Made by a program: the position numbers and the translations under genes. The notes beneath the pieces are model-generated. The model saw only the letters and a list, made by a program, of their open reading frames with translations, ran no database searches and was not told the origin of the DNA. This document shows, in pieces, positions 2,344 to 40,724 of a stretch of 46,386 nucleotides of DNA (positions are counted from its first letter, which is position 1; each line of letters opens with the position of its first letter). Source of the stretch: a virus (lineage: Duplodnaviria > Heunggongvirae > Uroviricota > Caudoviricetes); IMG/VR virus record IMGVR_UViG_2913167280_000002; one strand, written 5' to 3'.

Positions 2344-2432
2344 TCATTTCCTATTAGACATAGAAAACTTGTCTTATACGCAATGTAGTAAATTTCTATT
2401 GCCACATAGGAAAAGATTTCCTACCATCGTAG
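2344..2432 (+). repeat. three iteron-like direct repeats (ATTTCCTA...CATAG-type)
   Basis: catttcctattagacatag, aatttctattgccacatagg and gatttcctaccatcgtag directly upstream of the 2454 gene. Confidence 0.35.
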
Positions 2433-2453
2433 ATATAATAAATGGAGATGGTT

Positions 2454-2741
2454 ATGGATAAAGATACTGTTTTAAAAATGTTGAATCCGGCTTGTTTAAA
2501 AAAAGCGGATGAATGGGAATCTCCTACATGTGGAGAAGTTCGGGCAGTCATTGGCCTGACCGGAATGAGCGGCTCGCAGTTGGCCAAAAAACTTGGCTTA
2601 AAAGATAGTCGCAATGTTCGCAACTGGCAGATGTTAAAGGAGTCCACATCCAGATCCAGCATTCCGTATGCAGCCTGGGCGCTGCTGTGCTACTTCGCTG
2701 GGTTAGGGTTAATCTTCATTGATAACAAAACAGATGTTTGA
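2454..2741 (+). CDS. hypothetical protein, possible helix-turn-helix DNA-binding protein
   Basis: RBS GGAG 6 nt upstream; HTH-like segment GMSGSQLAKKLGLKDSRNVRNWQ. Confidence 0.4.
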   Translation: MDKDTVLKMLNPACLKKADEWESPTCGEVRAVIGLTGMSGSQLAKKLGLKDSRNVRNWQMLKESTSRSSIPYAAWALLCYFAGLGLIFIDNKTDV

Positions 2742-3919: not shown

Positions 3920-3934
3920 TCAGAACGAATGATA

Positions 3935-3961
3935 AGCCCCTGTTGCAAAGGGGCTTTTTTG
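3935..3961 (+). terminator. rho-independent terminator
   Basis: Stem GCCCCT/AGGGGC followed by TTTTTT. Confidence 0.6.
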
Positions 3962-3965
3962 TGCT

Positions 3966-4082
3966 TATAGAATTATATAATTATATATTTATATAAAAAG
4001 TGCTTTACAGGTGGGAAAAAATTTCCTATGGTTATACCCGAAACCGAGCGATACCCGCCCTGGTTAAACCGGAGATAACCCG
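3966..4082 (+). promoter_or_regulatory. conserved promoter/leader module, copy A
   Basis: AT-rich octamer array, TTTACA (4004-4009), 17-bp spacer containing the GGAAAAAATTTCC inverted repeat, TATGGT (4027-4032), then a ~45-nt leader ending in GGAG-N8-ATG. Near-identical to copies B and C. Confidence 0.6.
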
Positions 4083-4463
4083 ATGAGCATGATTAAAATC
4101 CGCAAAAACGCTTTCCTTAAAATTCAAACTATCCTGGCTGGTTCTGTTGGCGTGATTTGCCGTTCTTCTTCAAGCCGCATCGATGACGGCTACGATGATG
4201 AGTATCGTGTGTCCTCGTGCGATGAGGCTTTAACCTGGCTGAAGGAGAATCAGGAACGTGCCCAGGTATATCTGGAAACAGAGAACGGCAATCAGATGTT
4301 GCGTATTAGCGGCCGTTATGGATTTGAAACTACATTCATTGCCTATTTTAATCAGGCTTACTTTGACAAGGAGCTGGCCTGGTACACTGATCGCATGATC
4401 AAAAGCGAGCCAGCCCCGATTACACCGCCGAACAATAAACCATTTTTATTCCTCGTTAAGTAA
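4083..4463 (+). CDS. hypothetical protein
   Basis: First gene behind module A; GGAG RBS. Confidence 0.45.
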   Translation: MSMIKIRKNAFLKIQTILAGSVGVICRSSSSRIDDGYDDEYRVSSCDEALTWLKENQERAQVYLETENGNQMLRISGRYGFETTFIAYFNQAYFDKELAWYTDRMIKSEPAPITPPNNKPFLFLVK

Positions 4464-4526
4464 ACACAATACGCAAAGTGTCATTTTGACACTTTGCGAG
4501 TGTTAATATTGTGCGAGGAGAATGCT

Positions 4527-4799
4527 ATGACGGGTTATGAATTGAAATTATGGCGTCGTGGGATGAACTGGACGCAGGAGCGAGCCGCCGAAGAATTTGG
4601 GATATCGTTGGCTACATATAAGCGATATGAGAAGGGGGAGCCGCCGAGGGTCATTGAGATGGCCATTCGCGTTCTGTCGTTTGACGATATGGTGAAGGAT
4701 CTTTCACACCTTGATAAAGACGCGATTCTGTTAAGGCTGCAAACCCTTGTATGGGAAAAGGTTAAAGTGTCGTCAGAATTGGAACAAGGGATCAAATGA
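4527..4799 (+). CDS. small HTH (XRE-like) transcriptional regulator
   Basis: GAGGAG RBS 6 nt upstream; HTH segment MNWTQERAAEEFGISLATYKRYEKG. Confidence 0.5.
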   Translation: MTGYELKLWRRGMNWTQERAAEEFGISLATYKRYEKGEPPRVIEMAIRVLSFDDMVKDLSHLDKDAILLRLQTLVWEKVKVSSELEQGIK

Positions 4800-5608: not shown

Positions 5609-6760
5609 TTATGGTCTGCTTTTCTGTGCCAGCTTATCAGCACATGTTTTTATCAGATCCTGTAGTGTCCTGGCTGGCAGGTTTGCATCCAGAACGCTGA
5701 GTATGCTGTTGTGATCAGCTTGGTCGACTACTTTGCCTGTCGGTGGTAGTAGCTTGAGCTGAGGATTCAGGTTTTCGTCAAAGCTGATAAGTGCTCTGGC
5801 GTTTCTGAGCAGATCAAGAAGTAAGGCTGATATCACATTTTCCTGAGTCATTGCTGGCAGATTTAGCGCCGCTTTGGTTTTCCCTGTTGCCTTGTCAAAC
5901 TCCTTGATTAGTTCCTTTCTGTAGTTCGGTTCCGTTAATAGCCGATTATGCTCTGTTGCCGCGCGGATAATCGTTTTTTCCTGGTACAGTCGTTTAGCCA
6001 GATCGCGCTCGTACTGTGTTTTTAACACGCTGCTGATAGCGTTAAAGGCTTCAATGTAGGCCAGCTTGATATCTTTCACGCCTGGACCGTCGATGCTCTC
6101 CATGAGCAAGGTAAATCCGTCTTTTGTCATGCGATAGATTGTTATTTCGCGGTCGCTTCCTTCCAGCGGTCGTTGCTCTTTAAAGAAGTGACGCGCCGCA
6201 GCCGTGCGAGGAATGCGTAGCGCATCGATGGCCATAACGATGGAATTGTTTGTGGTGCTGAATGCCTGGGCAACATCGGCTGAGGTTGTGAGTGGCTCGT
6301 TGTTGCACACTTTAATGTAAAACATCGGTTTGGCGTTGAGCGTATCGACAACCTCACGAGCATTGTTTGGCGAGACGGTTACGGTCGCGGCCGTTTGCGC
6401 GTTCTGGCTGAAATAGCAGTCTTCCAGCCGTTCGAATACATCCCACGCCTGATCGGTTTCGAGCATTTTAGCGTGACGTGCAGCCCCGCGTTCTGTCCAG
6501 AGGATGAGAGAGCGAGTTTTGGGGGAAATTTGCACCTCATTTTGTGACTCGTTTAAAACTAGTCGCAAATTTTTGAGTTCATCACCAACAGCTTTAAAGA
6601 AGTGCTTCCCCTCAATGAACCGAGTTTTATTTTCATGGTGATTTTGCTGTATACGGATTGCTTCTGTTCCATAAAGGCGGGCGAGTAGCTCAGTTGTGAT
6701 TACTGGAATCTGATTATGCAGGATAGGCTGTAGGGTGTTAACGATCGGAAGCGTTTTCAT
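5609..6760 (-). CDS. phage antirepressor-like protein (Ant/Rha-type)
   Basis: 383 aa; N-terminal region resembles antirepressor/Rha regulatory domains; preceded by an overlapping small ORF as in P1 icd-ant. Confidence 0.5.
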   Translation of the reverse strand: MKTLPIVNTLQPILHNQIPVITTELLARLYGTEAIRIQQNHHENKTRFIEGKHFFKAVGDELKNLRLVLNESQNEVQISPKTRSLILWTERGAARHAKMLETDQAWDVFERLEDCYFSQNAQTAATVTVSPNNAREVVDTLNAKPMFYIKVCNNEPLTTSADVAQAFSTTNNSIVMAIDALRIPRTAAARHFFKEQRPLEGSDREITIYRMTKDGFTLLMESIDGPGVKDIKLAYIEAFNAISSVLKTQYERDLAKRLYQEKTIIRAATEHNRLLTEPNYRKELIKEFDKATGKTKAALNLPAMTQENVISALLLDLLRNARALISFDENLNPQLKLLPPTGKVVDQADHNSILSVLDANLPARTLQDLIKTCADKLAQKSRP

Positions 6761-6948
6761 TTTGCACCTCCCATAACAACTTTGGTTACGAGGGAGATTT
6801 TTGCGTCAGAAACAGCGTTATCGTTGCTGGCGATGCGCATAGCTTCGCGCTCGATGATTTCAGCCAGGCGGAATTTATCGGCGTATGAGGCTTTCTTGAG
6901 AAGGATCTTTACGAGGTTGACGTAATAGTCATGGGGTAGGTTTGTCAT
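6757..6948 (-). CDS. small protein translationally coupled to the antirepressor (icd-like position)
   Basis: 63 aa; ATGA overlap with the antirepressor start. Confidence 0.4.
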   Translation of the reverse strand: MTNLPHDYYVNLVKILLKKASYADKFRLAEIIEREAMRIASNDNAVSDAKISLVTKVVMGGAK

Positions 6949-7113
6949 TGTGATGATTCCCTTAAAGGTTAAGGATACTCACCACCGTCAGGTTCCAATC
7001 ATTGGGTGGTGAGACGTGCAGGGTTGGAACTACCGGACACAATGACGAACCGGCGAGTCTTACGACTCCCCCGCACGCCCCACCATAATTTGGGTGTAGC
7101 AGTGCTTTACGCA

Positions 7114-7200
7114 TAAAAAAACCGCTAACGCGGTATGCGCCATTGTGTCTACGGGGTTCCAATCCCGGCCGTAGATTTTGCTACGGCTCGGAAAGTGTCC
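7114..7200 (-). ncRNA. candidate small regulatory RNA upstream of the antirepressor operon (c4-like position)
   Basis: Minus-strand terminator (stem ACCGC/GCGGT at 7121-7134 plus T-run); hairpin 7149-7174 whose loop carries GGTTCCAAT; no ORF. Boundaries approximate. Confidence 0.3.
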
Positions 7201-7397: not shown

Positions 7398-7937
7398 ATG
7401 ATTGAACTGTCAAAAAACTCATGTTTTTCAACCATTCACCTAATGATCATAAAAGAACTTAGGCTAGAAAGAGGTGTGCATCAAGGAGTACTGGCTCAAG
7501 CTGCTGGAAAAACACCAAACGCATGGACAAAGATAGAGAACGGGCAGTCTATATTAACAGTTGACGCCCTTTTTGGTGCTTTCACAGCCCTTAATATTAC
7601 TCCAGTGAATTTCATGTCATTGGTAGAAAATCTTATTCCCGAATTTAACCGTTATGGTTACTTCTTTTTCCCTGGAACAATCAGTCAGGACGAGGATAAC
7701 CTTTTACCTCTGATGCTGCGTTACTTTAATAGCAAGGGGTTTGAAGCATTGAGAAATAGGCCATTAGAAAGAGTTAGCATTAGCTCAATGGGATTCTCAT
7801 TTGGGGGCGGCATCCCTGTTACTCCAACTGCTGTAATGTATTGTTGCGATGAAGCATATAGAAATTGGGTCGATAACGGTGCTGATGTGGATAATCGAGA
7901 TTATCTGGAGTCATCAACAGGTCGTGGACTGTTTTAA
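7398..7937 (+). CDS. HTH (XRE-family) domain protein with C-terminal domain of unknown function
   Basis: N-terminal HTH segment GVLAQAAGKTPNAWTKIENG; 179 aa. Confidence 0.5.
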   Translation: MIELSKNSCFSTIHLMIIKELRLERGVHQGVLAQAAGKTPNAWTKIENGQSILTVDALFGAFTALNITPVNFMSLVENLIPEFNRYGYFFFPGTISQDEDNLLPLMLRYFNSKGFEALRNRPLERVSISSMGFSFGGGIPVTPTAVMYCCDEAYRNWVDNGADVDNRDYLESSTGRGLF

Positions 7938-7982: not shown

Positions 7983-8374
7983 GTGCTGATCGGATTCGCG
8001 GTCCTTTCAGCATTACGTTGTTGTATAAACAACCACGCAAGCACAAGCAGCAAGTTGATTTTACCCAAAAGGTAATAATAGTCCACTATTATGCTTCAAA
8101 AAATTGTGGTTCTTGTTGTGTCTGCAAACTCACAGATTGTGGGTAGGTTACTGATTTTGTGAAAATAAACTGGTTTTTTCGTTTAATTTATTTCCTATTA
8201 CTAATCTTAAAATAATCGTAAAATACCTGTGGACCTTCCCGCCGATTCGCACCCGGGCACCGACTTTAGGGGAGGATTTCCTGTTGCCGTACATGCAAGC
8301 ACAAGCAGCCGTGCTTGCTCTCGCGTTGTTTTCGTCGGTGGGGATGCCGTGAAACGGCCTGTAAGGGCCATACA

Positions 8375-8497
8375 ATGAAAAAATACTGTATGTGTATTTT
8401 TATCGTTGTTACTGGGGCTTTGTTTACGCCACATGGGGAGGGTTGGAAGATTACTGATAACGCTCTGAATGTGACGATAAACATTAGCAGCAAGTAG
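8375..8497 (+). CDS. candidate small hydrophobic peptide (40 aa)
   Basis: MKKYCMCIFIVVTGALFTPHG...; AAGGG about 8 nt upstream; ends just before the terminator at 8503. Speculative. Confidence 0.25.
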   Translation: MKKYCMCIFIVVTGALFTPHGEGWKITDNALNVTINISSK

Positions 8498-8502
8498 CGA
8501 TT

Positions 8503-8526
8503 AGGCCCCTTCGGGGGCCTTTTTTA
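8503..8526 (+). terminator. rho-independent terminator
   Basis: Stem AGGCCCC/GGGGCCT, loop TTCG, then TTTTT. Confidence 0.65.
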
Positions 8527-8747: not shown

Positions 8748-8996
8748 TTACTTCTGGTTGTATTGAGCCTTGAGTAACTCAAAAGACTTTGTCAGCACTT
8801 CTTTCAATGACATATCCATTGAGCTGGCGAACGTTTTGTACTCGCGTTTAAATTCAGGGTCGACGTTAAACGCCATTTGTGCCCCACCTGATTTGGTTCT
8901 GGTTGGCGTTTCAGTCGGGTCGAAAACCTGCGGTTGTTCGATCGATGGCGGTACGCCTTTGCTGTTCTTCTTTGGTGGTTTTGATGGTGCGGCCAT
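8748..8996 (-). CDS. ribbon-helix-helix centromere-binding protein (ParG-like)
   Basis: 82 aa, basic flexible N-terminus then RHH-like MAFNVDPEFKREYKTFAS...; AGAGGGGA RBS; directly downstream of parA. Confidence 0.55.
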   Translation of the reverse strand: MAAPSKPPKKNSKGVPPSIEQPQVFDPTETPTRTKSGGAQMAFNVDPEFKREYKTFASSMDMSLKEVLTKSFELLKAQYNQK

Positions 8997-9039
8997 GTGT
9001 ATCCCCTCTTATATAAATCTATAAAACTATAATTATATA

Positions 9040-9693
9040 TTACGCGGCAGTAGTCAGAGCCTCAAGCTGGTTGATAATCCCCTGAATAACGTCGTCTGCC
9101 TTTTTGCGTGGCGCAACGTATGAGCACTCAATGAGGCTTAAGCCCTTATCCTGAGCTTTGCTCAGAGCTGGCTTGTGGGGAATGTACTTATCGACAACAA
9201 AGTATGGCGTATTAGCCAGGTACTCTTGGGCTTCGATGTAGTCAGCTTCGTTTTCAGCCGCGCCGGAAAACACCATGCAAATTTTCTTGATTGGTACGCC
9301 CTTTTTAACGATGCCGTGAGCAGTGTTAACGGTGGTTTCAAGGTCATCGGTAGAGAATCGGGTTGGCAAAATAACCATATCCAGAAATTCAGATAGCTTC
9401 GGTACTGATTCAGATGCGTAGGCACCGCCATCAACGATAACCAGGTCGTATACTTCTGATTCGATGATTTTCTGGACTTGTGATGGCGTGCCGCACGGCT
9501 GCGCCGCGATTGCAGGTTCGATATTGTTGGCCATTCTGCGTTGTACCCAACGCGTTACCGTTCCGTTAAGCACATCCATATCGATCAGGCATACATTCCA
9601 GCCAGCCTTTGCATAAGCAACTGCTAAAGCACGGGCAATGGTTGATTTGGTTACGCCGCCTTTTCCGTTGAAAATACCTACAGATATAGTCAT
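9040..9693 (-). CDS. parA: partition ATPase ParA (small type Ib)
   Basis: Deviant Walker A GKGGVTKST; about 217 aa; GGAG RBS before the second in-frame Met. Confidence 0.8.
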   Translation of the reverse strand: MTISVGIFNGKGGVTKSTIARALAVAYAKAGWNVCLIDMDVLNGTVTRWVQRRMANNIEPAIAAQPCGTPSQVQKIIESEVYDLVIVDGGAYASESVPKLSEFLDMVILPTRFSTDDLETTVNTAHGIVKKGVPIKKICMVFSGAAENEADYIEAQEYLANTPYFVVDKYIPHKPALSKAQDKGLSLIECSYVAPRKKADDVIQGIINQLEALTTAA

Positions 9694-9714
9694 TTGTCGA
9701 GACTCCATGTGTTT

Positions 9715-9825
9715 GATTATATAATTCTATAAATCTATATTTATAGAATGAGGTAAGCATAACCAACTTTTGAGCGGATGAAAAGCACTTTATATAATTA
9801 TATAAATCTATAATATTTAAGCGGG
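9715..9825. repeat. AT-rich octamer arrays upstream of parA (candidate centromere and promoter)
   Basis: Two clusters of TTATATAA/TTATAGAT-type units. Confidence 0.4.
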
Positions 9826-10308: not shown

Positions 10309-10965
10309 TCATAACCAGTTGACAACACTAACTACGCGGCCCAGAACTTTATAACGCTTAAATTCCTCGTTATTCAGATGCTTAGTGTTCATTTCAGCAT
10401 CCCTTTCGGTTGACAGCATAACAGCATTGTCACCCGGTATGACTCTACAGTGCCTCAAAACAACCAGGCCATTTCTGTCTTCAAGGGCATAGATCCCCTC
10501 ATGAATCTCTGTATCGTCTGTATCAATCAGGACTTGGGAGCCAGGGGATATTGTTGGTGACATTAACTCATCGTTGCTCTGGAGAACTGACAGAGACGAT
10601 GGGTTGATGTTCTTGCTTCGTAGAATCTCCTGTTCTATCGCCAGCACTGGCTTTTCTCCGGCGTGCGATGCTATGTCATTTTTTATAGCTACAAGCCCAG
10701 GAATAACAGGAGCGTTAGTATTCTGGGGTGGGAACGGGTTATCTGTTAAGCACGCGATATAAGGCGCTGATGCTTTCAGGGCGTGAGCGATTTTCTTGAT
10801 GGCAGGTATAGATGGTTGTCTTAATCCGGCCTCATAGTTCTGCAAGGTGCTTAAGCCTATTCCAGTGACTTGCTGGAGATCTCCGGCAGTCATGCCGGAT
10901 TGTTTCCGTAGAGTCTGAATGCGCAGACCTATTTCTTTCTTGATGTTCTCGTCGTTGCTTTTCAT
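10309..10965 (-). CDS. CI-like prophage repressor (HTH plus LexA/S24-like C-terminal domain)
   Basis: N-terminal HTH (LQQVTGIGLSTLQNYEAG) and C-terminal S24-like region; divergent from the early operon. Confidence 0.75.
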   Translation of the reverse strand: MKSNDENIKKEIGLRIQTLRKQSGMTAGDLQQVTGIGLSTLQNYEAGLRQPSIPAIKKIAHALKASAPYIACLTDNPFPPQNTNAPVIPGLVAIKNDIASHAGEKPVLAIEQEILRSKNINPSSLSVLQSNDELMSPTISPGSQVLIDTDDTEIHEGIYALEDRNGLVVLRHCRVIPGDNAVMLSTERDAEMNTKHLNNEEFKRYKVLGRVVSVVNWL

Positions 10966-11002
10966 GTCTCATCAATCGTGAATGGTGGGTTATTTATACA
11001 TT

Positions 11003-11121
11003 ACCACATTTAGTGGTTTTCACGCGGTAAGACGAGATGTGGACCACAAATAGAAGGCTATTTTTTGTTTCGCCCATTGAAAAACTCACGATATGTGGTT
11101 TTAATACCACATATCGTGGTT
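11003..11121. promoter_or_regulatory. immunity-switch operator cluster
   Basis: ACCACATTTAGTGGT (11003-11017), CTCACGATATGTGGTT (11085-11100) and ACCACATATCGTGGTT (11106-11121) in the divergent intergenic region; rightward promoter-like TTGAAA-N17-TTAATA overlaps the last two. Confidence 0.5.
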
Positions 11122-11138
11122 TAACTGGAGTTCGTTAA

Positions 11139-13542: not shown

Positions 13543-13658
13543 TCTATAAATATATAATTATATATTTATATAAAAAGTGCTTTACAGGTAGGAAAAAATT
13601 TCCTAAGGTTATACCCGAAACCGAGCGATACCCGCCCTGGTTAAACCGGAGAAATCTG
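13543..13658 (+). promoter_or_regulatory. conserved promoter/leader module, copy B
   Basis: Near-identical to copy A, with differences in the -10 (TAAGGT), the spacer and the last 7 nt. Coordinates approximate to within 1 nt. Confidence 0.6.
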
Positions 13659-14726
13659 ATGAATAAACAAGTAATTATTTCTGACTGGATCAACAACCCT
13701 AACAGCCTGTTAAGCACTGATACTGGCTACCTATTACGCCATGTTAATGGTCGTATGGTCAAAAGCGATGAGCACGAAACCTTTTTCTTTGTTGAAGACG
13801 ATGGGCGCATCTATGAGGATGGTTACTCTTATGAAGCCCAAACTGGTTGTATCCCTGCGGAGCTGGTGGACGTAACAGAAGATCTGCGCAAAGCATGGCT
13901 TGAACAGCAGCAGCGCGGAGATGATTACGTAAACACCTATCAGGAACGCCAGAACGCGCGTCTTGCCCGATATATTGCTCGTGCAGAAAAAGCCAGAAAA
14001 GAAGGTGCGGTAGCGCATAAGCGAGCGCATGACCTGTTGGATGTGATCCCGTTAGGCCAGCCGATTTTAGTTGACCATTATAGCGCGAAAGGCCATCGCC
14101 GCCGTTTGTCTAAAGCTGATGCGTTATTCAGAAAAGCGTTTGTTGAATGCGAAAGTAAAGCATCACACTACGAGAGCAAAGCCGCAGGTGTTGGTCGTAA
14201 TGGAATTTCGTCTGATGATCCTGATGCGCTATTTAAGTTGCTTCGTAAGCTGCAAGGCTGCATGAAGTCACACGTCAAAATGAAGGCCGCAAATAAGGCC
14301 ATTCGCAAATACAAAAAAGACCAATTACAGCAGCTTTCTGCATTAATCGATCTCAGGTTTACAGAAAGCGAAGCCAAAGAGTTACTGGCCGGAGATTTCT
14401 GTGGGCGCATCGGATTCCCTTCATACGCACTGAGCAACAATAACGCCGAAATCAAACGACTACAGAGCCGTATTAAGGAGCTTGAATCGGTCAAGTCTGT
14501 AACAGGAGCACAGCGCGAAGAATACGACGGCTTTTCTATGGAGATAGATCCAGAGGATAACCGCATCCTGTTTTATTTCCCTGGCAAACCAGAGGCAAAC
14601 ATTCGTTCGCTGCTTAAATCACGCGCCTTTAAGTGGAGTCCAACCCGTAATGCATGGGTTCGCAAGATTACTCCAAACGCCCTGGCTGATGCCCGATATC
14701 TGAAAGAATCGCTATTGAAAGCCTGA
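13659..14726 (+). CDS. hypothetical protein (355 aa)
   Basis: First gene behind module B; GGAG RBS. Confidence 0.5.
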   Translation: MNKQVIISDWINNPNSLLSTDTGYLLRHVNGRMVKSDEHETFFFVEDDGRIYEDGYSYEAQTGCIPAELVDVTEDLRKAWLEQQQRGDDYVNTYQERQNARLARYIARAEKARKEGAVAHKRAHDLLDVIPLGQPILVDHYSAKGHRRRLSKADALFRKAFVECESKASHYESKAAGVGRNGISSDDPDALFKLLRKLQGCMKSHVKMKAANKAIRKYKKDQLQQLSALIDLRFTESEAKELLAGDFCGRIGFPSYALSNNNAEIKRLQSRIKELESVKSVTGAQREEYDGFSMEIDPEDNRILFYFPGKPEANIRSLLKSRAFKWSPTRNAWVRKITPNALADARYLKESLLKA

Positions 14727-14803
14727 CAGTAAGCCTACGGCGGGATGTCTCCCGCCGTATATAGAATTATATATTTATATAAATGTATAAGGACGCCTCG
14801 ACA

Positions 14804-19767: not shown

Positions 19768-19936
19768 TATATATTTCTATAATTATATAAATATATAGTT
19801 ACAACATTCTATGCGCTTTTCTCATGGGTGCACGCATCAACCATGTTTGTCTGATATGCCGCCGCGCCCAAAAATCCTGAATTTATTGGCTGGGATTTTC
19901 GTGCGCGGCGCCACACCAGACAAACAAATCAAATAT

Positions 19937-20012
19937 GGCCCCTTAGCTCAGTGGTTAGAGCAGGCGACTCATAATCGCACGGTCATCGGTTCAAGTCCGG
20001 TAGGGGCCACCA
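19937..20012 (+). tRNA. tRNA with CAU anticodon (Met or lysidine-modified Ile)
   Basis: 76 nt; 7-bp acceptor stem, D-arm GCTC/GAGC, anticodon loop CTCATAA, T-loop TTCAAGT, encoded CCA; one G-A mismatch at the top of the anticodon stem. Confidence 0.75.
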
Positions 20013-20315: not shown

Positions 20316-20903
20316 ATGGAGGCAATTGCATTGTTTAATCTGATTTATGCAGATCCCCCCTGGGAATACAAAGACAAGTGTAAGGATGGGAATCGTGGCG
20401 CTGGTTTTAAGTATCCAACGATGAAAGCTGAGGAGATTGCTCGTATTCCTGTCTGGCAGCTTGCTAATCCTGAATCGTGTTTGTTGGCCATGTGGTGGGT
20501 TCCGACTCAGCCAGAAGAAGCGTTGCTGGTGGTGAAAGCATGGGGATTCAGGCTTATGACCATGAAGGGCTTCACATGGAACAAATGTGGTAGCCGACAA
20601 CCAGATAAGCTGGTGATGGGAATGGGGCATATGACTCGTGCAAACAGTGAAGATTGCTTGTTTGCAGTGAAAGGCAAACTACCGACACGTCTTGATGCGG
20701 GGATCATTCAGTCGTTTACATCGCCTCGTCTGGAGCATTCTCGGAAGCCTGATGTGGTCCGTGACAAGCTGGTAAAGCTGTTAGGCGATGTTCCTCGTAT
20801 TGAGCTGTTTGCTCGCGGTGATTTACCTGATGGCTGGCATGGCTGGGGCAACCAGTGCAACGGAGGTATCCAGTTGCATGATGCTCTCTGGCAAGTGTCA
20901 TAG
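20316..20903 (+). CDS. MT-A70-family DNA N6-adenine methyltransferase
   Basis: DPPW catalytic motif in LIYADPPWEY near the N-terminus; 195 aa. Confidence 0.7.
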   Translation: MEAIALFNLIYADPPWEYKDKCKDGNRGAGFKYPTMKAEEIARIPVWQLANPESCLLAMWWVPTQPEEALLVVKAWGFRLMTMKGFTWNKCGSRQPDKLVMGMGHMTRANSEDCLFAVKGKLPTRLDAGIIQSFTSPRLEHSRKPDVVRDKLVKLLGDVPRIELFARGDLPDGWHGWGNQCNGGIQLHDALWQVS

Positions 20904-21015
20904 AATTATATAATTATAGATTTATATAAAAAGTGCTTTACAGGTGGGAAAAAATTTCCTATGGTTATACCCGAAACCGAGCGATACCCGCCCTGGTTAA
21001 ACCGGAGATAACCCG
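20899..21015 (+). promoter_or_regulatory. conserved promoter/leader module, copy C
   Basis: Identical to copy A from the -35 region to the ATG, one substitution in the AT-rich box; TTTACA at 20937-20942. Confidence 0.6.
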
Positions 21016-21285
21016 ATGAAAGTACAAGACCGTGAAGTAGTAAAAAACCTCCTGCAATACCTGACCTCAAAAAACCTGACGGGCAGCGTTGAGTTCCGTG
21101 AAGCGTTAAAACATTTCAACGTCACTACGGTTTATCGTTGGGAAAACAAACATTCTGAAAGACCGTATGTGGTGGATGTTTTTGCGCCTGATATTGAGTG
21201 CGGTTTTGAGCGTCATTCGTTCAAGGAGAAACATTCCGCTGATGTTTTTTGTGAGGTTGTATGTGCGGCAGGAGATGATGAGTGA
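21016..21285 (+). CDS. hypothetical protein
   Basis: First gene behind module C. Confidence 0.4.
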   Translation: MKVQDREVVKNLLQYLTSKNLTGSVEFREALKHFNVTTVYRWENKHSERPYVVDVFAPDIECGFERHSFKEKHSADVFCEVVCAAGDDE

Positions 21286-23346: not shown

Positions 23347-23970
23347 ATGACAAAACAACTTAATGTGGTTTCTTTACCACTTTCTGTGTTGATTGGTTAT
23401 GAAAAGAACGCTCGCACACACTCCGTGGAGCAGGTAGATCAGATTGTTGCCAGCATACAGGAGTACGGATGGACTAATCCGATCCTGATAGACGAGAACA
23501 ACGTTGTAATTGCTGGTCATGGTCGAATTGCTGCGGCCACTCAGTTGGGGATGGATGATGTTCCCTGCATTGTTCTGGCTGGGCTAACGGAGAATCAGAA
23601 GAAGGCATATCGTCTGGCCGACAACCGTATTCCGCTGAATGCTGGTTGGGATGAAGAGCTGTTAAGCGCGGAGCTTGCAGATCTTGCGGCCGATGATTTT
23701 GCTCTGGACTCAATTGGTTTTACTCAGCGCGAACTGGATAACTTATTGAGTGCGGCGGTCTACGATGACACAGAGGGTATGGATATCCCATTTGAGAAGG
23801 ATGAGGCCAAATCAGGCGTAAAAGTTCAGTACCTGTCATTTGGAGGTCATAAAATCCCGGCAACGGATGAGGAAGCGGATCGTTTTGACTGCGCGGTGTC
23901 TCGTTATGTTGATGATAATGGCAGCTATATCGGATTTGTATCCGCATTGCTGGCTGGGGAGGTGTGCTGA
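23347..23970 (+). CDS. ParB-like nuclease-domain protein
   Basis: ParB N-terminal-domain pattern ...NPILIDENNVVIAGHGRIAAA...; paralogous to the 26636 protein. Confidence 0.6.
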   Translation: MTKQLNVVSLPLSVLIGYEKNARTHSVEQVDQIVASIQEYGWTNPILIDENNVVIAGHGRIAAATQLGMDDVPCIVLAGLTENQKKAYRLADNRIPLNAGWDEELLSAELADLAADDFALDSIGFTQRELDNLLSAAVYDDTEGMDIPFEKDEAKSGVKVQYLSFGGHKIPATDEEADRFDCAVSRYVDDNGSYIGFVSALLAGEVC

Positions 23971-25343
23971 TGCTTCACCTGAATTACGACATAACGCACC
24001 TACGCGGCGCGGAATATAACCCGCGTTTTATCGGTGAGGATGATCTTGCGAGGCTGGAGGAAAGCGTCAGGGAGCTGGGGCTTGTGAAGCCATTGATAGT
24101 GCGCGGCGATTTGCTGGTGGCGGGACACCAAAGGACGAAGGCGCTACGTAAGTTGGGAATAACGCGTGCTGCGGTGTATGTGTTGCCCTGTGAAACGACG
24201 GTATACGACGAAGTTCGGTTTAACCAACTGCATAACGGAACGGATTTTGATAGCGGAGATGAGCGTTGCAGGGTGTCCGGTCTGGAAGATAAGCATGGTT
24301 TTGTTCAGGTATCGGCAAGCCAGATCTCAGGCAATATGCGCGCGAAAATGGCATATGTTCGAAAGAACATAGCGGAACTGGTTATCAAGTATGGTCCGTG
24401 GGGTGGTTGTGTTGCTACTCAGTCTGGCGAGGTTATTCACTGTGCTCAGTATGCATTAGCAGCGAAGATGACGCGCACACCGCTAACGGTGTTTGTGATC
24501 CCTGATGTTGAGAAGGAAAAATACCAAAGTTATCTGAATAAAACTTATGGTGTATTTGAGTATTCTCATCTGGAGAAAACAACATACATCCAGACGTATG
24601 CGCAGCTTATGCGGTTGCGTAATGGTGGCAGCCTGAAATCAAACCTGTATGAGTCGTTGATCCTCCCGATCATTGCCAAGACGCCAAGAGGAATTGATTT
24701 TGGTTCGGGGCAGGGAGACTACGCGCGAATGCTCAGGGCAAAGGGGTATAACCTGCATGATCTTGAGCTTTTCCGCCGTAAGGGCGCAGGAAACACTCTG
24801 GATAGGGCTGCAACAAACCGAATGATTGATACGCTGGTGGACGACTTAAAAACGCGAGGGCGTTACGACTACGTGATTTGCGATAGCGTTTTGAACTCGG
24901 TCGATAGTGTCGAGGCTGAATGGTCCGTTCTGACGGTTCTGAAAGGCCTGTGTAAAGCTGGTGGGTCAATATTCTTTTCTGGCCGTAGCCGTGGAGAGCT
25001 GGAGAGTGTGCTTAAACGAACGCAAGCTGCTAGCTCTATAAGTCGGCTTTATTTTATTGACCATAACGGTTTTTCTGCTTTGTACCGGAAGGGACACTGG
25101 TTTTATCAGAAGTTTCATTCTGATGAGGAAGTGAAGCAATTGTGCCGTGAGCATAGCTTCAGAATAAAGCGGTCGGTATTTAACGGTAAGAGCTGGTATT
25201 TGCACGTTATTAACGATGATTCTCTTCGCTGGGAGAGTCTGGAGAAAGCTGTTCGTTTTGAGTTTGAGTTGCCGTTGCCTGGTGGTTCAACAATCGGACG
25301 ATCTGATGATGTGTTGGCGGCTTTCCGGCCGTTGATTAAGTAG
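23970..25343 (+). CDS. fusion protein: ParB-like N-terminal domain plus class I SAM-dependent methyltransferase domain
   Basis: N-terminal ParB-like block (LVAGHQRTKALRKLG); C-terminal GIDFGSGQGDY motif I and YDYVICDSVLNSV motif II; no DPPY-type amino-methyltransferase motif seen. Confidence 0.55.
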   Translation: MLHLNYDITHLRGAEYNPRFIGEDDLARLEESVRELGLVKPLIVRGDLLVAGHQRTKALRKLGITRAAVYVLPCETTVYDEVRFNQLHNGTDFDSGDERCRVSGLEDKHGFVQVSASQISGNMRAKMAYVRKNIAELVIKYGPWGGCVATQSGEVIHCAQYALAAKMTRTPLTVFVIPDVEKEKYQSYLNKTYGVFEYSHLEKTTYIQTYAQLMRLRNGGSLKSNLYESLILPIIAKTPRGIDFGSGQGDYARMLRAKGYNLHDLELFRRKGAGNTLDRAATNRMIDTLVDDLKTRGRYDYVICDSVLNSVDSVEAEWSVLTVLKGLCKAGGSIFFSGRSRGELESVLKRTQAASSISRLYFIDHNGFSALYRKGHWFYQKFHSDEEVKQLCREHSFRIKRSVFNGKSWYLHVINDDSLRWESLEKAVRFEFELPLPGGSTIGRSDDVLAAFRPLIK

Positions 25344-25359
25344 TGTGTAGGAGGCGCTG

Positions 25360-26079
25360 GTGGCTGACAGAATTGAGATAAAGATGGATTTTTCTTCTCA
25401 GGATATTCAACGACAACTCCAGCGCCTTGAAGAACGCGAATTGCCATTCGCAATGGCGCTTGCGGCAACCAGAACGGCAAAGGCTTCTCAGGCTGCGATT
25501 AAGAATGAAATTAATCGGGTATTTGACAGGCCCACGCCGTGGATTCAGAACTCTACTTACGTTTTGGCCGCAAAGAAGAGTGATCCTACAGCCATTGTGT
25601 ATGCTCGTGAATGGGGAGGAACGCCAGCCCCTGTAACGTTGACTCCGCAAATCGAAGGTGGCCAACGACAGTACAAACGCTCAGAAGGGGCGCTAAGGGC
25701 TGGTGGATATTTGCCTAACGGCTGGCAGCTTGCTCCTGGTCCCGGCGCAAAGCTGGACAAATACGGGAATATTTCGCGGGGGCAATTACAGCAGGTCTTA
25801 TCTGGCCTAAGAGTTCAGCGAGATGCGCATCAAAATCGCCGTCAGGGCAAGCCTACGGAGTTTTTTGTTGTTCGACCTGGTACAAGTAACCCGCTTCAAC
25901 CAGGCGTCTGGCAGCGCGTTGGGCGGCGTCCTACGTTGATCCTTACGTTTATCCAGCAACCTAACTATTCGCAGCGTCTTGATTGGCATGGCGTGGCGCT
26001 ACGTGCTGGTGAGGATGCGTTTGCTGATGAAGTCACAAAGGCTATTGATGACATTCTTTCTAAGACGTTCTCTCGTTAA
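25360..26079 (+). CDS. hypothetical protein
   Basis: GTG start with AGGAGG RBS. Confidence 0.4.
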   Translation: MADRIEIKMDFSSQDIQRQLQRLEERELPFAMALAATRTAKASQAAIKNEINRVFDRPTPWIQNSTYVLAAKKSDPTAIVYAREWGGTPAPVTLTPQIEGGQRQYKRSEGALRAGGYLPNGWQLAPGPGAKLDKYGNISRGQLQQVLSGLRVQRDAHQNRRQGKPTEFFVVRPGTSNPLQPGVWQRVGRRPTLILTFIQQPNYSQRLDWHGVALRAGEDAFADEVTKAIDDILSKTFSR

Positions 26080-26635
26080 TCATCGTGTGGTTGATGGTGT
26101 TGTTATGCAGGGTGTATTCACTGTGTTCTGTAGCGTCGCTCGCTGGCTGTCTGTGGGTGAGCACGAGCATCGTTTCATCGTCCGGCAGAATTGGGTCCTT
26201 CTGGCCAAAAGCGTTGGATGCGGGTCATTCGAACCCCGATGTTCGGCTAGCTAAACGTGAAAAAAGTTAGGTTAAAAGTTGCGGTAAAAGAAATTTACTC
26301 ATCTCATTGAAAAATATCGGGAAAACGTGATTTTTTGCTGTATTTGTGCTGGTAAAAAGAAAGTAGAAAATTTTCTTTTAGATCATCAAGATACGCGCAG
26401 ATCTTTAACCAATGTGATGTTGTTCTGATAAAAATCGTTATAAATCATGCAAATACATCCAATCTTTTAACCAAAACACCATCTCAAGATCCTTTTCACT
26501 TATAAAAACTTAATAAAATCAGATAATTATGCTGGTTTGTGTGATTTTTTATGAGTAAAAAGATCGTCATTTTCTCTTTTAGTATCAATAAGTTAAACAG
26601 TTTTCTTTAACCTGTTGTGTTATGGCGGTTAAAAA

Positions 26636-27226
26636 ATGGCTCTAAAAATCGAATATTTACCAGTCGGTAAGCTGCTCAGATACGCCAAAAATTCACGGAC
26701 TCATTCAGATGAGCAGGTTGAACAGTTGGTGAACAGTATCCGTGAGTTCGGTTTCACTAATCCTGTGCTGATCGATGAAAAGAATGAACTGATTGCGGGG
26801 CATGGTCGGCTTGCAGCAGCCGAAATTCTGGAAATGGATAAAGTTCCGGCGATTCGGTTGAGTAACCTTTCTGAAAAACAGAAGAAGGCTTACAGGATTG
26901 CAGATAACAAGCTGGCCTTAAATGCTGGCTGGGATATGCAGCTTCTGGCCGAAGAAGTCAAAGAGTTAATGGATGATGATTTTGATATTGATCTGCTTGG
27001 GTTTAATGATGCAGAACTTGACGAAATGTTAAGCGATGAACAGCCGCAGGAAGAAGACGATAATTCTTCCCCTGTTGTTCAAATTAAGTACCTGGCTATT
27101 GATAAAGAACGTATTCCCGCGACGGATATGGAAATTGCATTGTTGCTGGATGTTTATCGTCAGTACCACGACGCGCATGAAACGCATGAGGGATTTGTTC
27201 AGTATCTTGCTAATGGTTGCAAGTAA
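26636..27226 (+). CDS. ParB-like nuclease-domain protein (second paralog)
   Basis: Same domain pattern as the 23347 protein; its stop overlaps the terminase small subunit start. Confidence 0.6.
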   Translation: MALKIEYLPVGKLLRYAKNSRTHSDEQVEQLVNSIREFGFTNPVLIDEKNELIAGHGRLAAAEILEMDKVPAIRLSNLSEKQKKAYRIADNKLALNAGWDMQLLAEEVKELMDDDFDIDLLGFNDAELDEMLSDEQPQEEDDNSSPVVQIKYLAIDKERIPATDMEIALLLDVYRQYHDAHETHEGFVQYLANGCK

Positions 27227-37931: not shown

Positions 37932-40724
37932 ATGGCCAGCAATAAGAACTTTAAGCTGGCTTTTGAAATTGGCGGCAAAGTTGCCGCCTCTCTCCCCAAA
38001 AGTTTTACTACAGCTAATCAGGCTGTTGCTAAATTAAATGCCGAGCTTGCTGGATTAACGAAAGAACATGGGGAAATTCAAAAGCTACAATCTGTAAAAG
38101 TAAAGGTTGGACAGACTGCCCTCGAATATCATAAAGCTGCCGCTCGCGTTGAAGAGTTACAGAAGCAAATAAAAAACACGGCCAATCCAACCAGAGCGAT
38201 GCTTCGTGACTTTGAGAAGGCAAAAACACATTCATCGAATTTACGAGCATCACTACGTTCTCAGCGTGAAGAACTGGCCGCTTTAAAGTCTGCCTATCAG
38301 GGAGCTGATACATCTGCCAGAGCTTTGGCCTCAAGAGAGAAAGAGCTTAAAGCCAGCATTGATCGTAATCGTGAGGCTCAGGCCCGTAGCGTTGAGCAGG
38401 TTAACCGCTACAGAACGGCTTTGGCTTTAGCCAGAGCAAATGTTCAGCAAGTGAAAAAACAGCAGGAGGAACTTAACCGGGCATTAGAAAAACAACGTAT
38501 TGATAAAATTAACAGCTATAAAAATGCGTTGGCTGAAGCACGGAAAAATGTTCTTGCAGTAAAACGTGCTCAGGAGGAGTTAAACCGCGCGTTGGAAAGG
38601 CAGCGTGAATTGAAGCGAGAGCATCTTGGTGAGGCAAAGAGTCAACTTGTAAGGTCAGGATTACAAACTGGTGCTGTAGCTGCTGGTGCATTTGCTGCTG
38701 CTAACAATGCAGCAAATTTTAATCGTGAAAACAAAATGATTGGTCTTACGGCAGATATGAAGCCGGAAGAAGTTCAGGCGATGGGGCAGGCGATGCTTGT
38801 TACCGGAACGGCTACCAACCAGTTTGCATCTGATATTCAGGCCGCTCAGGGGTTTCTCGTCGCTGCTGGGCAGGATTATAAAGAGGCTCAGGCGAATCTA
38901 CTAACTATTGGACGAACAGCTACAGCTACTGGCTCTGATATCCTCGATGTCTCGAAAGCATCATTTACATTAAGTGACTCATTGAAGATTGATCCATCTC
39001 AAATGAAGTCTGCAATGGGGATTCTGGTTCAGGCAGGGAAAGAGGGAAACTTTGAATTTAAAGATATGGCCAAAAATCTTCCTGTGCTTGGTGCTCAGTT
39101 CCAGGCATTAAAAATGGGAGGTAAAGAAGCCGCCGCGACGATGGGGGCAGCTTTGCAGATAGCTCGCAAAGGTGCTGCAACTTCGGATGAGGCTGCTAAT
39201 AATATGAACAACTTTTTGGCGAAAATACTTTCCCCTGAAACACTAAAAAAAGCAAAGAAAAATTTCGGTGTAGATTTATATAAAATTGTCACAACAGCGC
39301 AGAAAAAAGGGAAGAATCCATTCGAAGCTGCAATGCATTCTGTCATGAAAATGACTAAGAACGGAGATCAGAAGTTACTTGGTGAGCTATTTGGCGATAT
39401 GCAGGTTCAGAACTTTGTTCGTCCGATGATTCAAAACTGGAAGGAATACCAGAGAATCAAAGCAACATCTCTTGGGGCTGGAAGTGCTGTTATTGACCGC
39501 GATTTTGCCAACATAACGAAAGACAATGCGGAGCGATTGAAACAATTACGTATTCAGGCTAGCAATGCATCATTAAGTTTTGGTCAGGCCTTGCAACCTG
39601 CTTTGAATGCCGCGCTTAGTGTTTTGGTTCCGCTGATTACAAAAATTAGTGAATTTGTAGCTAACAACCCCAATTTTGTGTCTCAGATTGTGATGGCGGC
39701 AGGTGCGTTTCTAACCATGAAAAGTGTGGTTATAGCGTGTAGGGTAGCTATGCTGGCTTTATCTGTAGCGACAAAGCTAACACCCTTCGGGTGGATTCAG
39801 ATGGCTATATCTGCGCTGGTTGCCGCAGGAATATTGCTCTATCAGAATTGGGATAAGATCAGAGATTATGCTGTCAGAGTTTGGCCTTCTGTTAAGGAAT
39901 ATACAGTTAAATCATTTGAGGCTATAAAAAACTTTATCTTAAACTTTGATCTCAATGGATGGATTATATCTATGTTTGGTAAAACATGGGATTATCTTTC
40001 CAACATAAACTGGAGTTCGGCAGGAGTAAGAATTTACAGTACATTAATTAGTGTTTTTAAATGGATGTCTCCGCTTCCGTTCTTAATTAAAGCATTTAAA
40101 CTTACAACAAATTACCTTTCTGGTATTAACTGGAGCGAAACAGGAAAGAAGATCATAGATACACTGGTATCTGTTTTTATGCGTTTTTCACCAGTTGGAC
40201 TCTTTATAAGAGCATTCCAATCTGTAACGGCTTATTTATCTGGAATAAACTGGAGTGAGTCAGGTGCAAAAATAATTGAGACGTTAATCACTGGGATAAA
40301 ATCAAAAGCAAATGCTTTAATTAATGAAGTGAAAGGCGTTTTTTCTTCTGTACGTGAGTATTTACCGTTCTCTGACGCGAAAAAAGGTCCATTCTCACAG
40401 CTAACAAAGTCAGGTGGTGCAATAATGACTACTCTGGCATCAGGCGTTAGCAGGAATAACAGCTTACAGAATGCAATAGCAACCAAGTTCGGGCAATCAA
40501 ATTTATCACCTCACGGGATATCTGCCGCCGGGACTTCTGGACCTCGCCAGAACGTTAACGCTGTGACTGGTGGAATAACCTATTCACCTGTAATCAATCT
40601 TCCGGCTGGTTCACCAAAGGAAACTGAGGCGGCAGCTAAAAGAGCATTAGATGCGGGATATTCTGATTTTGAGAAGAAATTGAGTGCTCATATGTTCCAA
40701 CAACGGAGATTAAGTTTTGGATGA
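37932..40724 (+). CDS. tail tape measure protein
   Basis: 930 aa, coiled-coil-rich N-terminal third, hydrophobic segments mid-protein. Confidence 0.8.
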   Translation: MASNKNFKLAFEIGGKVAASLPKSFTTANQAVAKLNAELAGLTKEHGEIQKLQSVKVKVGQTALEYHKAAARVEELQKQIKNTANPTRAMLRDFEKAKTHSSNLRASLRSQREELAALKSAYQGADTSARALASREKELKASIDRNREAQARSVEQVNRYRTALALARANVQQVKKQQEELNRALEKQRIDKINSYKNALAEARKNVLAVKRAQEELNRALERQRELKREHLGEAKSQLVRSGLQTGAVAAGAFAAANNAANFNRENKMIGLTADMKPEEVQAMGQAMLVTGTATNQFASDIQAAQGFLVAAGQDYKEAQANLLTIGRTATATGSDILDVSKASFTLSDSLKIDPSQMKSAMGILVQAGKEGNFEFKDMAKNLPVLGAQFQALKMGGKEAAATMGAALQIARKGAATSDEAANNMNNFLAKILSPETLKKAKKNFGVDLYKIVTTAQKKGKNPFEAAMHSVMKMTKNGDQKLLGELFGDMQVQNFVRPMIQNWKEYQRIKATSLGAGSAVIDRDFANITKDNAERLKQLRIQASNASLSFGQALQPALNAALSVLVPLITKISEFVANNPNFVSQIVMAAGAFLTMKSVVIACRVAMLALSVATKLTPFGWIQMAISALVAAGILLYQNWDKIRDYAVRVWPSVKEYTVKSFEAIKNFILNFDLNGWIISMFGKTWDYLSNINWSSAGVRIYSTLISVFKWMSPLPFLIKAFKLTTNYLSGINWSETGKKIIDTLVSVFMRFSPVGLFIRAFQSVTAYLSGINWSESGAKIIETLITGIKSKANALINEVKGVFSSVREYLPFSDAKKGPFSQLTKSGGAIMTTLASGVSRNNSLQNAIATKFGQSNLSPHGISAAGTSGPRQNVNAVTGGITYSPVINLPAGSPKETEAAAKRALDAGYSDFEKKLSAHMFQQRRLSFG

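Follow-up and report, generated by a model that had tools for sequence, protein, structure and literature searches.

The locus and its three promoter modules

The DNA analysed here is a stretch of 46,386 nucleotides (IMG/VR virus record IMGVR_UViG_2913167280_000002; hereafter the window) that represents an Escherichia coli/Salmonella/Yersinia phage-plasmid of ~48 kb with an IncFII-type RepA. It is identified as a phage-plasmid by its combination of plasmid genes (the IncFII-type RepA, a HigBA toxin-antitoxin pair and a small ParA) with phage genes (those for a CI/LexA-like repressor and for an Ant antirepressor, the latter preceded by a C4 antisense RNA, together with lysis genes, terminase and a contractile tail). 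Three near-identical modules, each ending at an ATG, lie at 3966-4082 (module A), 13543-13658 (module B) and 20899-21015 (module C), and each precedes a different operon: operon A consists of small proteins and a helix-turn-helix (HTH) protein and is located beside the plasmid maintenance region; operon B extends from its first gene to 20903 and includes holins, an endolysin, a tRNA and, at its end, an MT-A70 methyltransferase; and operon C encodes ParB/Srx-domain proteins and leads toward the terminase at 27217. All of the features listed for these modules in a preliminary description were found: an array of four octamers in tandem, the hexamer TTTACA, a spacer of 17 nt with GGAAAAAATTTCC in it, a -10 hexamer that reads TAAGGT in copy B and TATGGT in the other two, a leader of ~43 nt and a ribosome-binding site whose GGAG stands 8 or 7 nt ahead of the ATG. 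Within the window, GGAAAAAATTTCC as an exact 13-mer is confined to the three modules. By contrast, the "repeated ACCCG" of that description is no motif of its own, two of its copies being parts of the leader hairpin and of the CCG preceding the ATG, and a fourth operator-bearing promoter (2399-2427) as well as five extra octamer arrays (starting at 9010, 9718, 9791, 14760 and 19768) had escaped it. The coordinates of all features are collected in Table 1.

When aligned from the octamers to the ATG, the modules exhibit 92-98% pairwise identity (over 120 nt) and the similarity stops a few bases past the start codons; a repeat finder likewise groups them as one 120-nt family. Such identity is what would be expected if the copies were recent duplications or recombination scars without a regulatory role, and in the lineage of the window it indeed exceeds the identity between related genomes (83-91%), which indicates that the copies are homogenised and that this homogenisation is ongoing. 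The explanation is nonetheless extremely unlikely. Exactly three copies are kept in almost every full-length relative (~65 related plasmids), and in two Serratia plasmids the orthologous copies are 84-88% identical, with paralogues at 77-91%: as orthologues are as alike as paralogues, the triplication is old and predates the split of these two plasmids, which rules out a recent idle duplication. Moreover, the layout is kept at ~70% identity in Serratia, Vibrio and IncP-1 elements, and the leader hairpin has undergone compensatory changes. Thus, the modules look like real promoter/leader units rather than idle duplications. The conservation up to the start codon, which the preliminary description had attributed to co-regulation, is borne out as an observation but is partly due to homogenisation within the genome and not wholly to co-regulation.

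A KorC-type operator and a korC homologue

The inverted repeat in the spacer is in fact a 17-bp palindrome, T(A/G)GGAAAAAATTTCCTA, which takes up the spacer and provides the TA with which the -10 hexamer begins. The pattern TRGG-N9-CCTA occurs at four sites in the window (4012-4028, 13589-13605, 20945-20961 and 2407-2423), corresponding to 6 matches against 1.5 expected by chance, with the two fully palindromic sites counted on both strands. The fourth of these sites belongs to a promoter that exhibits neither octamer array nor hairpin leader and is located directly upstream of a 99-aa open reading frame (ORF). This ORF shows 41-51% identity to annotated IncP-1 KorC genes (tblastn against plasmids), 39% to KorC of the IncP-1gamma plasmid QKH54 (BLASTP, E 4e-18) and 41% to KorC of pJJ1886_4 (BLASTP), and among PDB entries a resemblance to the DNA-binding HTH of AcrIF24 and Aca3 was seen; the RefSeq label of the family's copy is hypothetical protein (e.g. 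pEC488-4, 40097-40384).

By homology, the 99-aa ORF is a KorC homologue and the dyad of the modules is a KorC-type operator, given that the dyad occupies the homologous position in the KorC targets of QKH54, that korC is present on the replicon and that the CI operators differ. At all four sites the 17-bp palindrome of the TAGG-N9-CCTA type lies between -35 and -10, a cognate korC homologue is found on the same replicon, and promoter and leader show homology to those of promoters known to be under KorC control; the TAGG-N9-CCTA type follows the operator consensus of RK2 KorC. The window carries what is, from these features, a four-promoter KorC-type regulon including the promoter of korC itself, and the module promoters are probably switched off by the self-encoded KorC. 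The preliminary description had not recognised the modules as a described element, which no longer holds, since the dyad is a KorC-type operator and both promoter and leader are homologous to the IncP-1 klcA/kleH promoters. Its proposal of co-regulation through both a DNA site and the RNA leader is broadly right, with the spacer dyad and the leader hairpin both being conserved.

Several HTH proteins are encoded nearby and the assignment to KorC was made from sequence, so that the dyad might also serve another regulator: the HTH protein encoded at 4494-4799, HigA, the 179-aa HTH protein at 7398-7937 or CI. We consider this quite improbable, as the sole further copy of the dyad in the window is found in the korC promoter, and in IncP-1, IncL/M, Serratia and Vibrio elements, too, korC goes along with a TAGG-N9-CCTA at this place of the promoter. 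An identity of the dyad as CI operator was rejected, with the cI-cro region exhibiting ACCACA..TGTGGT repeats instead and no copy of the dyad.

A sigma-70 consensus scan scored copies A and C at 9/12. The poor -10 hexamers, and the position of module C ahead of the packaging region, would also suit activator-dependent middle or late phage promoters of the P2 Ogr or P1 Lpa type, in which dyad or arrays act as activator sites. This is very improbable: the dyad is centred in the spacer and overlaps the -10 hexamer, which is the geometry of a repressor site; module A drives small non-structural genes beside the plasmid maintenance region; and the homologous cassettes of RP4 and RA3 are repressed by KorC (PMC7314908, PMC7414963).

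The cassette in other plasmids and phage-plasmids

In order to place the modules, we compared them with other elements. The two Serratia relatives, which are diverged phage-plasmids (CP083756 and NZ_CP074139), have a repA-toxin-antitoxin-par-cI-early backbone in common with the window and differ in their virion modules; each carries three modules, one simpler promoter with the dyad TAGGAC-N5-GTCCTA, and a korC gene. With a Serratia module as blastn query, QKH54 is matched at kleH. There, TAGGACAAAATGTCCTA is found between -35 and -10 before kliA, klcA and kleH, which belong to the classical KorC targets, and a like leader follows in each case. The kleH cassette of QKH54 in turn matches 1,480 plasmids, including IncL/M plasmids of the pOXA-48 type, mcr-1 IncP plasmids and pJJ1886_4, in which the cassette precedes klcA (antirestriction), DUF905, JAB-domain and kle genes, always with korC nearby. 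A pattern search of IMG/VR (operator, 30-50 nt, AACCGGAGA) retrieved further cassettes in diverse viral contigs, and a Vibrio campbellii phage-plasmid exhibits three to four cassettes with 8-bp arrays of its own (AAGAAATA type) together with a KorC homologue. The operator half-site differs by lineage (GGAAA..TTTCC versus GGAC..GTCC), and the corresponding KorC proteins are ~34% identical.

The function of such cassettes has been described for several plasmids. In RP4, KorC represses klcA, kleA and kleC (PMC7314908, PMC12365149), and klcA expression rises 120- to 220-fold on entering a new cell, that is in new transconjugants (PMC7314908). In pOXA-48, a KorC site is predicted between -35 and -10 of the korC-containing operon, suggesting autoregulation (PMC12365149), whilst KorC of RA3 is a global regulator of five promoters (PMC7414963).

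Octamer arrays and the par locus

In the AT-rich part of each module, an 8-bp unit (TATAGAAT, TATATAAT or a similar one) stands four times in tandem. Such arrays, with at least three units, were found at 8 loci in the window and in none of 50 shuffles. Three of the five non-module arrays lie in the partition (par) locus: one separates parA from its partner gene, one is part of the parA leader and one precedes a site that resembles a parA promoter. The last of these (9791-9814) reads, on the minus strand, array-AAAGTGC-TTTTCA-17 nt-TATGCT and therewith has a module-like upstream layout with a different spacer and without the KorC operator; the putative parA promoter reached 8/12, below the threshold of the scan. 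ParA is small, of the Walker type and without an N-terminal HTH, and a small ORF of 82 aa starts 44 bp downstream of it. As in type Ib partition loci, a small ParA is followed by a small partner gene, and short direct repeats stand beside parA, which here recur at the module promoters.

Because three non-module arrays lie in the parA locus, the octamers are probably bound by the 82-aa partner of ParA, a candidate ParG/omega-like protein. The 7-mers of the module arrays are shared to 71% with the par arrays of the same genome and to 11-17% with the Serratia par arrays; the module arrays of Serratia are likewise closest to their own par locus. In addition, the conjugative, non-phage cfr plasmid p737A1-27K-cfr from E. 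coli encodes a homologous ParA and a 77-aa partner (39% identical) and exhibits the same octamers between parA and the partner gene and in the parA leader. The partner itself has the pattern of ParG and omega: in a structural model of the 82-aa protein (pLDDT 67), its N-terminal tail is basic and predicted to be disordered, and an extended segment and then two helices follow. A ribbon-helix-helix (RHH) fold, however, was not confirmed by any search, with no match in the PDB by sequence or by fold and with an hhalign alignment to ParG that is in register at a probability of 1%. The Serratia homologues of the partner are similar.

A simpler explanation of the arrays would be that they are UP elements, or bent AT tracts bound by H-NS or IHF, that set promoter strength. 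Their position at -43 to -74 and the resemblance of the units to TATAAT fit UP elements, and the weak -35 and -10 hexamers might need such a boost. Against this, the arrays follow a strict 8-bp register and also occur at non-promoter sites (the gap between parA and partner gene, the parA leader and within operon B), and their unit sequence is specific to the genome, matching its own par locus, with the same arrays found at the homologous par pair of an unrelated plasmid. Hence we regard an UP-element role in place of partner binding as rather unlikely.

RepA iterons were also considered for the arrays and rejected: no arrays lie near repA (830-1810), and they cluster at the par locus. The IncFII-type RepA is not known to use iterons.

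AT-rich direct repeats ahead of KorC-type promoters are also seen outside the E. coli family, namely TAACGAAA-type repeats at klcA of QKH54 (2160-2195) and the AAGAAATA-type 8-bp arrays of the Vibrio campbellii plasmid (4640-4690, 5220-5270 and 5650-5695). In plasmid p737A1-27K-cfr (584-1560 and 3001-3048), the par pair and its arrays are joined by the HigBA pair known from the window and by what is left of a module A that IS26 has cut short.

A covarying hairpin in the leader

The leader RNA of module A is predicted to form a two-tier hairpin (4042-4065) with a minimum free energy of -9.6 kcal/mol (z about -2.7). Its conservation was analysed with 21 non-redundant leaders, for which the hairpin was not a selection criterion; part of the set had been gathered by a pattern requiring operator and AACCGGAGA, which is a reservation on the result. 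RNAalifold returned a 4-bp outer and a 3-bp inner stem for these leaders, with compensatory changes in 5 of the 7 pairs. Paired cells amounted to 95.1%, compared to 85.0% after shuffling, and the covariation score was 0.380 as opposed to 0.185, in both cases with none of 500 shuffles reaching the observed value; in controls with slid partners, pairing did not exceed 53%. Eleven cells are G-U on the sense strand and therefore C-A mismatches on the other, which favours a structure at the RNA level. From this covariation, we regard the hairpin of the leader as real.

The spacing between operator and hairpin is constant in most cassettes; the hairpin starts ~10-11 nt past the -10 hexamer and so would be located 2-4 nt from the expected 5' end. 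It is followed by AAACCGGAGA, 6-8 nt and the AUG. With a covariance model, the copies of the window reach 34.6-39.9 bits (module A: 39.9) and are found alongside the IncP-1 copies; in 0.5 Mb the model matches only these cassettes and one promoterless copy in QKH54, with the next-best score below 19 bits. This promoterless copy (1808-1853) comprises the hairpin and AACCGGAGA-ATG between kliB and kliC, with neither operator nor promoter upstream, and indicates that the unit of hairpin and Shine-Dalgarno (SD) sequence is separable from the promoter. The pOXA-48-type cassette also has operator and hairpin. Rfam contains no family matching the modules at gathering threshold, the only match being at chance level (E 8.6).

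An alternative function of the leader would be that of a regulatory target, as site of a translational repressor or small RNA or as a CGG...CCG switch that sequesters the SD sequence. In line with this, AAACCGGAGA and the CCG before the AUG are common to IncP-1 plasmids and phage-plasmids, a weak second helix encloses the SD sequence in most folds, and the kliB-kliC copy of QKH54 has hairpin and SD sequence without a promoter. The second helix, however, amounts to just 3 bp and is missing from several cassettes, no candidate RNA-binding protein was identified, complementarity to the C4, isrK and ryfA RNAs is at chance level and there is no long antisense match elsewhere. A leader that serves mainly as such a target thus appears unlikely when compared with one that protects the transcript and presents its ribosome-binding site. 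Antisense control as such was rejected on the same duplex energies, which for C4, isrK and ryfA-like RNAs do not stand out from those of shuffles (z +0.6, -0.8 and +0.6, respectively), and the longest antisense match to the leader elsewhere was 11 nt. We also rejected an antitermination leader of the HK022 put type: put elements comprise two adjacent stem-loops of ~65-70 nt just downstream of the promoter, whilst the module has a single 24-nt hairpin in a leader of ~43 nt.

Proposed mechanism

The architecture of the sequence, its homology to promoters under KorC control, the korC gene of the window, the covariation of the hairpin and the arrays common to modules and par locus were all observed directly; from these we infer the binding events, promoter activity, transcription start and role of the hairpin that are set out below. 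It is likely that each module is a composite cassette of plasmid origin, made up of a KorC-repressed promoter, partner-bound arrays and a 5' hairpin leader, through which operons A to C are silenced together and expressed in a burst upon entry into a KorC-free cell. A dimer of the KorC homologue (2442-2741) would bind the operator in the spacer and block RNA polymerase, and would repress its own promoter via the fourth operator. The 82-aa partner of ParA would bind the octamers at about -74 to -43 as a second layer of repression, and if so the modules would double as dispersed centromere-like sites; such repression by KorC and the ParA partner would parallel the co-repression of IncP-1 kle/klc by KorA and KorC. 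Transcripts would start 2-4 nt before the hairpin (at ~4040 in case of module A), and the hairpin would then most likely protect the 5' end of the mRNA, stabilise the transcript and present a fixed, efficient ribosome-binding site. That the hairpin stabilises transcripts and standardises translation initiation is probable, and is the weakest step of the mechanism.

In the established plasmid-prophage, KorC would occupy the four operators and the partner the arrays, keeping operons A, B and C off together. On entry into a KorC-free cell or on loss of KorC, the operons would fire together until KorC accumulates, a burst resembling the zygotic induction of klcA and kle in RP4. During lytic growth KorC would have to be overridden, for which read-through from the early promoter and the Ant antirepressor are candidates.

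Several observations weigh against this scheme. The -10 hexamers of the modules are poor, and copy B (TAAGGT) fell below the threshold of the sigma-70 consensus scan. At -43 to -74, the arrays could act simply as UP elements, and for their presumed binder, the 82-aa partner, the searches by sequence and fold did not confirm an RHH fold. Operon B holds lysis genes, so that a burst at every entry would need further control. Finally, modules B and C have no intrinsic terminator upstream (a strong one closes the higBA operon just upstream of module A), and hence read-through from the early promoter may outweigh the module promoters in lytic growth.

As a tentative possibility, the scheme may extend further: in a widespread family of E. 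coli, Salmonella and Yersinia phage-plasmids, with relatives in Serratia and Vibrio, the phage replication/lysis and packaging-proximal operons may have come under a kil-kor circuit of plasmids, with KorC as second immunity repressor, the partition protein as co-repressor acting via the arrays, so that copy number and segregation feed into the lysis-lysogeny decision, and the leader of hairpin and SD sequence, which the KorC regulons of over a thousand plasmids have in common, as an uncatalogued cis-acting RNA with a function of its own.

Features of the window and its relatives

Table 1. Positions of the promoter modules, the fourth operator-bearing promoter, the par locus and associated genes in the window.
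Feature	Position	Strand	Details
Intrinsic terminator closing the higBA operon, just upstream of module A	3934..3956	+	8-bp stem, then T-run
Module A, octamer array	3966..3997	+	TATAGAAT TATATAAT TATATATT TATATAAA; about -74 to -43
Module A, promoter core	4004..4032	+	-35 TTTACA 4004-4009; 17-nt spacer; -10 TATGGT 4027-4032; 9/12
Module A, predicted KorC-type operator TGGGAAAAAATTTCCTA	4012..4028	+	Position homologous to QKH54 klcA/kleH promoters
Module A, predicted leader hairpin	4042..4065	+	Outer stem AACCG/UGGUU, inner stem GCG/CGC, loop AUACC
Module A, ribosome-binding region AAACCGGAGAUAACCCG and AUG	4066..4085	+	SD GGAG 4071-4074; ATG 4083
Module B	13543..13658	+	Array 13543-13574; -35 13581-13586; operator TAGGAAAAAATTTCCTA 13589-13605
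Module B, remaining elements		+	-10 TAAGGT 13604-13609; hairpin 13619-13642; SD 13648-13651
Module C	20899..21015	+	Array 20899-20930, overlapping methyltransferase stop codon 20901-20903; -35 20937-20942
Module C, remaining elements		+	Operator 20945-20961; -10 20960-20965; hairpin 20975-20998; SD 21004-21007
Fourth operator-bearing promoter	2399..2427	+	TTGCCA, 17-nt spacer, TACCAT; operator TAGGAAAAGATTTCCTA at 2407-2423
korC homologue (99 aa)	2442..2741	+	Presumed repressor of all four operators, by sequence homology
Operon A, first gene	4083..4463	+	126 aa, phrog_8090; function unknown
Operon A, gene after the first	4494-4799	+	HTH_3 protein
Operon B, first gene	13659..14726	+	355 aa, DUF3560, primase-like C-terminus
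Operon C, first gene	21016..21285	+	89 aa; function unknown
ParA partner (82 aa)	8748..8996	-	Candidate ParG/omega-like centromere-binding protein, presumed array binder; directly downstream of parA
Octamer array between parA and partner gene	9010..9041
Small ParA partition ATPase (222 aa)	9040..9708	-
Octamer array in parA leader	9718..9749
Octamer array upstream of putative parA promoter	9791..9814
Octamer array in operon B, without promoter core	14760..14783		Follows GC hairpin 14741-14758; abuts ribosome-binding site of winged-HTH gene
Octamer array in operon B, upstream of tRNA	19768..19799		Without KorC operator or promoter core; tRNA 19937-20009

The window is near-identical to the Yersinia pestis myophages vB_YpM_39, 41 and 44 (circular, 49 kb each) and matches the ~65 plasmids mentioned above, which are non-mobilizable, 46-52 kb in size and originate from Salmonella, Klebsiella and three Escherichia species (E. 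coli, E. albertii and E. fergusonii). Among them is the plasmid (48.5 kb) carried by the reference strain E. coli ATCC 25922, a member of the same phage-plasmid family. Using the DUF3560 protein as query for distant relatives, GTDB genomes returned unrelated Clostridia loci only and IMG/VR near-identical copies only, and a literature search on this phage-plasmid family and on KorC in phage-plasmids found nothing relevant.

Further features were observed outside of the modules. The minus strand of 5609-7187 exhibits the layout of a P1-like immunity I region, with an isrK-like RNA (7115-7187), the C4 antisense RNA (7002-7090), a 63-aa ORF (6757-6948) and a 383-aa Ant/Rha antirepressor (5609-6760). 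A full-length match to ryfA RNA (143 bits) is located at 8229-8525 (+), in the interval that separates the HTH gene (7398-7937) from the par locus. The CI/LexA-like repressor is encoded at 10309-10965 and adjoins a divergent cI-cro-like region (10966-11138), in which several ACCACA..TGTGGT-type repeats are presumed CI operators. Three proteins with ParB/Srx N-terminal domains (207, 459 and 196 aa) are encoded at 23347-27226, just upstream of the small terminase subunit. Three tandem repeats of 132 bp each lie near the window end (45631-46026), and a 120-bp periodic repeat is found inside the tape-measure gene (39989-40273).

Significance and comparison with known systems

Through this analysis, an orphan-looking repeat gains a candidate regulator, whose gene carries no more than the label hypothetical in RefSeq. 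Our findings suggest that phage-plasmids reuse the logic of plasmid global regulation, a shared repressor operator combined with partition-protein sites, to silence phage operons; if true, a burst of expression is expected when the element enters a new cell. The covarying hairpin travels with KorC-controlled promoters across ~1,480 plasmids, including those of the pOXA-48 type and mcr-1 IncP, and since it belongs to no Rfam family it is a tractable target for studying the expression of plasmid establishment genes.

The closest known system is the kil-kor regulon of IncP-1 plasmids (RK2/RP4, with QKH54 compared directly), which like the window exhibits a 17-bp TAGG-N9-CCTA between -35 and -10, several strong, near-identical promoters and korC on the replicon, and whose promoter and leader can be aligned with the window cassettes (blastn, covariance model). 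In the IncP-1 case, the second repressor site just upstream of -35 is a KorA operator (GTTTAGCTAAA in QKH54 kleH), whereas in the window an octamer array shared with the locus of ParA and its small partner is found there. The window furthermore is a tailed phage-plasmid with an IncFII-type RepA and is not conjugative, its cassettes have phage operons rather than kle/klc downstream, and its operator half-site is GGAAA, not GGAC or GGGC. KorC of RA3 (IncU) is, like the proposed KorC of the window, a global repressor that coordinates several modules from few operators (PMC7414963), and in pOXA-48 (IncL) the one site that is predicted stands, as in the window, between the -35 and -10 hexamers, here those of the korC operon (PMC12365149). 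The RA3 and pOXA-48 regulons cover replication, stability and transfer genes and, unlike that of the window, no phage functions.

In terms of the arrays, similarities to partition systems are apparent. The type Ib partition proteins omega (pSM19035) and ParG (TP228) double as transcriptional repressors, with omega acting at the copS, delta and omega promoters. Like the window, these systems have a small ParA, a small partner whose N-terminal tail is flexible and basic, and 7- or 8-bp repeat arrays by parA; the arrays of the window differ in being spread over 17 kb and in lying upstream of -35 rather than over it, and the RHH fold was, as described above, not confirmed by the searches with its partner. 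Partition-protein sites that are dispersed at or near promoters and couple segregation to expression are known from the centromere sites of the phage-plasmid N15 and the KorB OB sites of RK2. These employ large HTH proteins of the ParB/SopB type and palindromic sites, in contrast to the small ParA partner and 8-bp arrays of the window. Cooperativity between KorA and KorB has also been described (PMC2680271). Phage P1 offers a parallel as a plasmid prophage in which many dispersed operators of one repressor, C1, are placed on lytic operons, and which has a c4-icd-ant immunity region, with a C4 antisense RNA and ant also present in the window; C1 and its asymmetric 17-bp operator are, however, unrelated to KorC and its palindrome, and the window has a separate CI/LexA-like repressor with operators of its own.

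Taken together, the KorC operator-promoter cassette of plasmid kil-kor regulons is already known, while it is new that a tailed phage-plasmid carries it ahead of phage operons, that it is fused to octamer arrays of the par type and that its leader holds a covarying hairpin outside Rfam.

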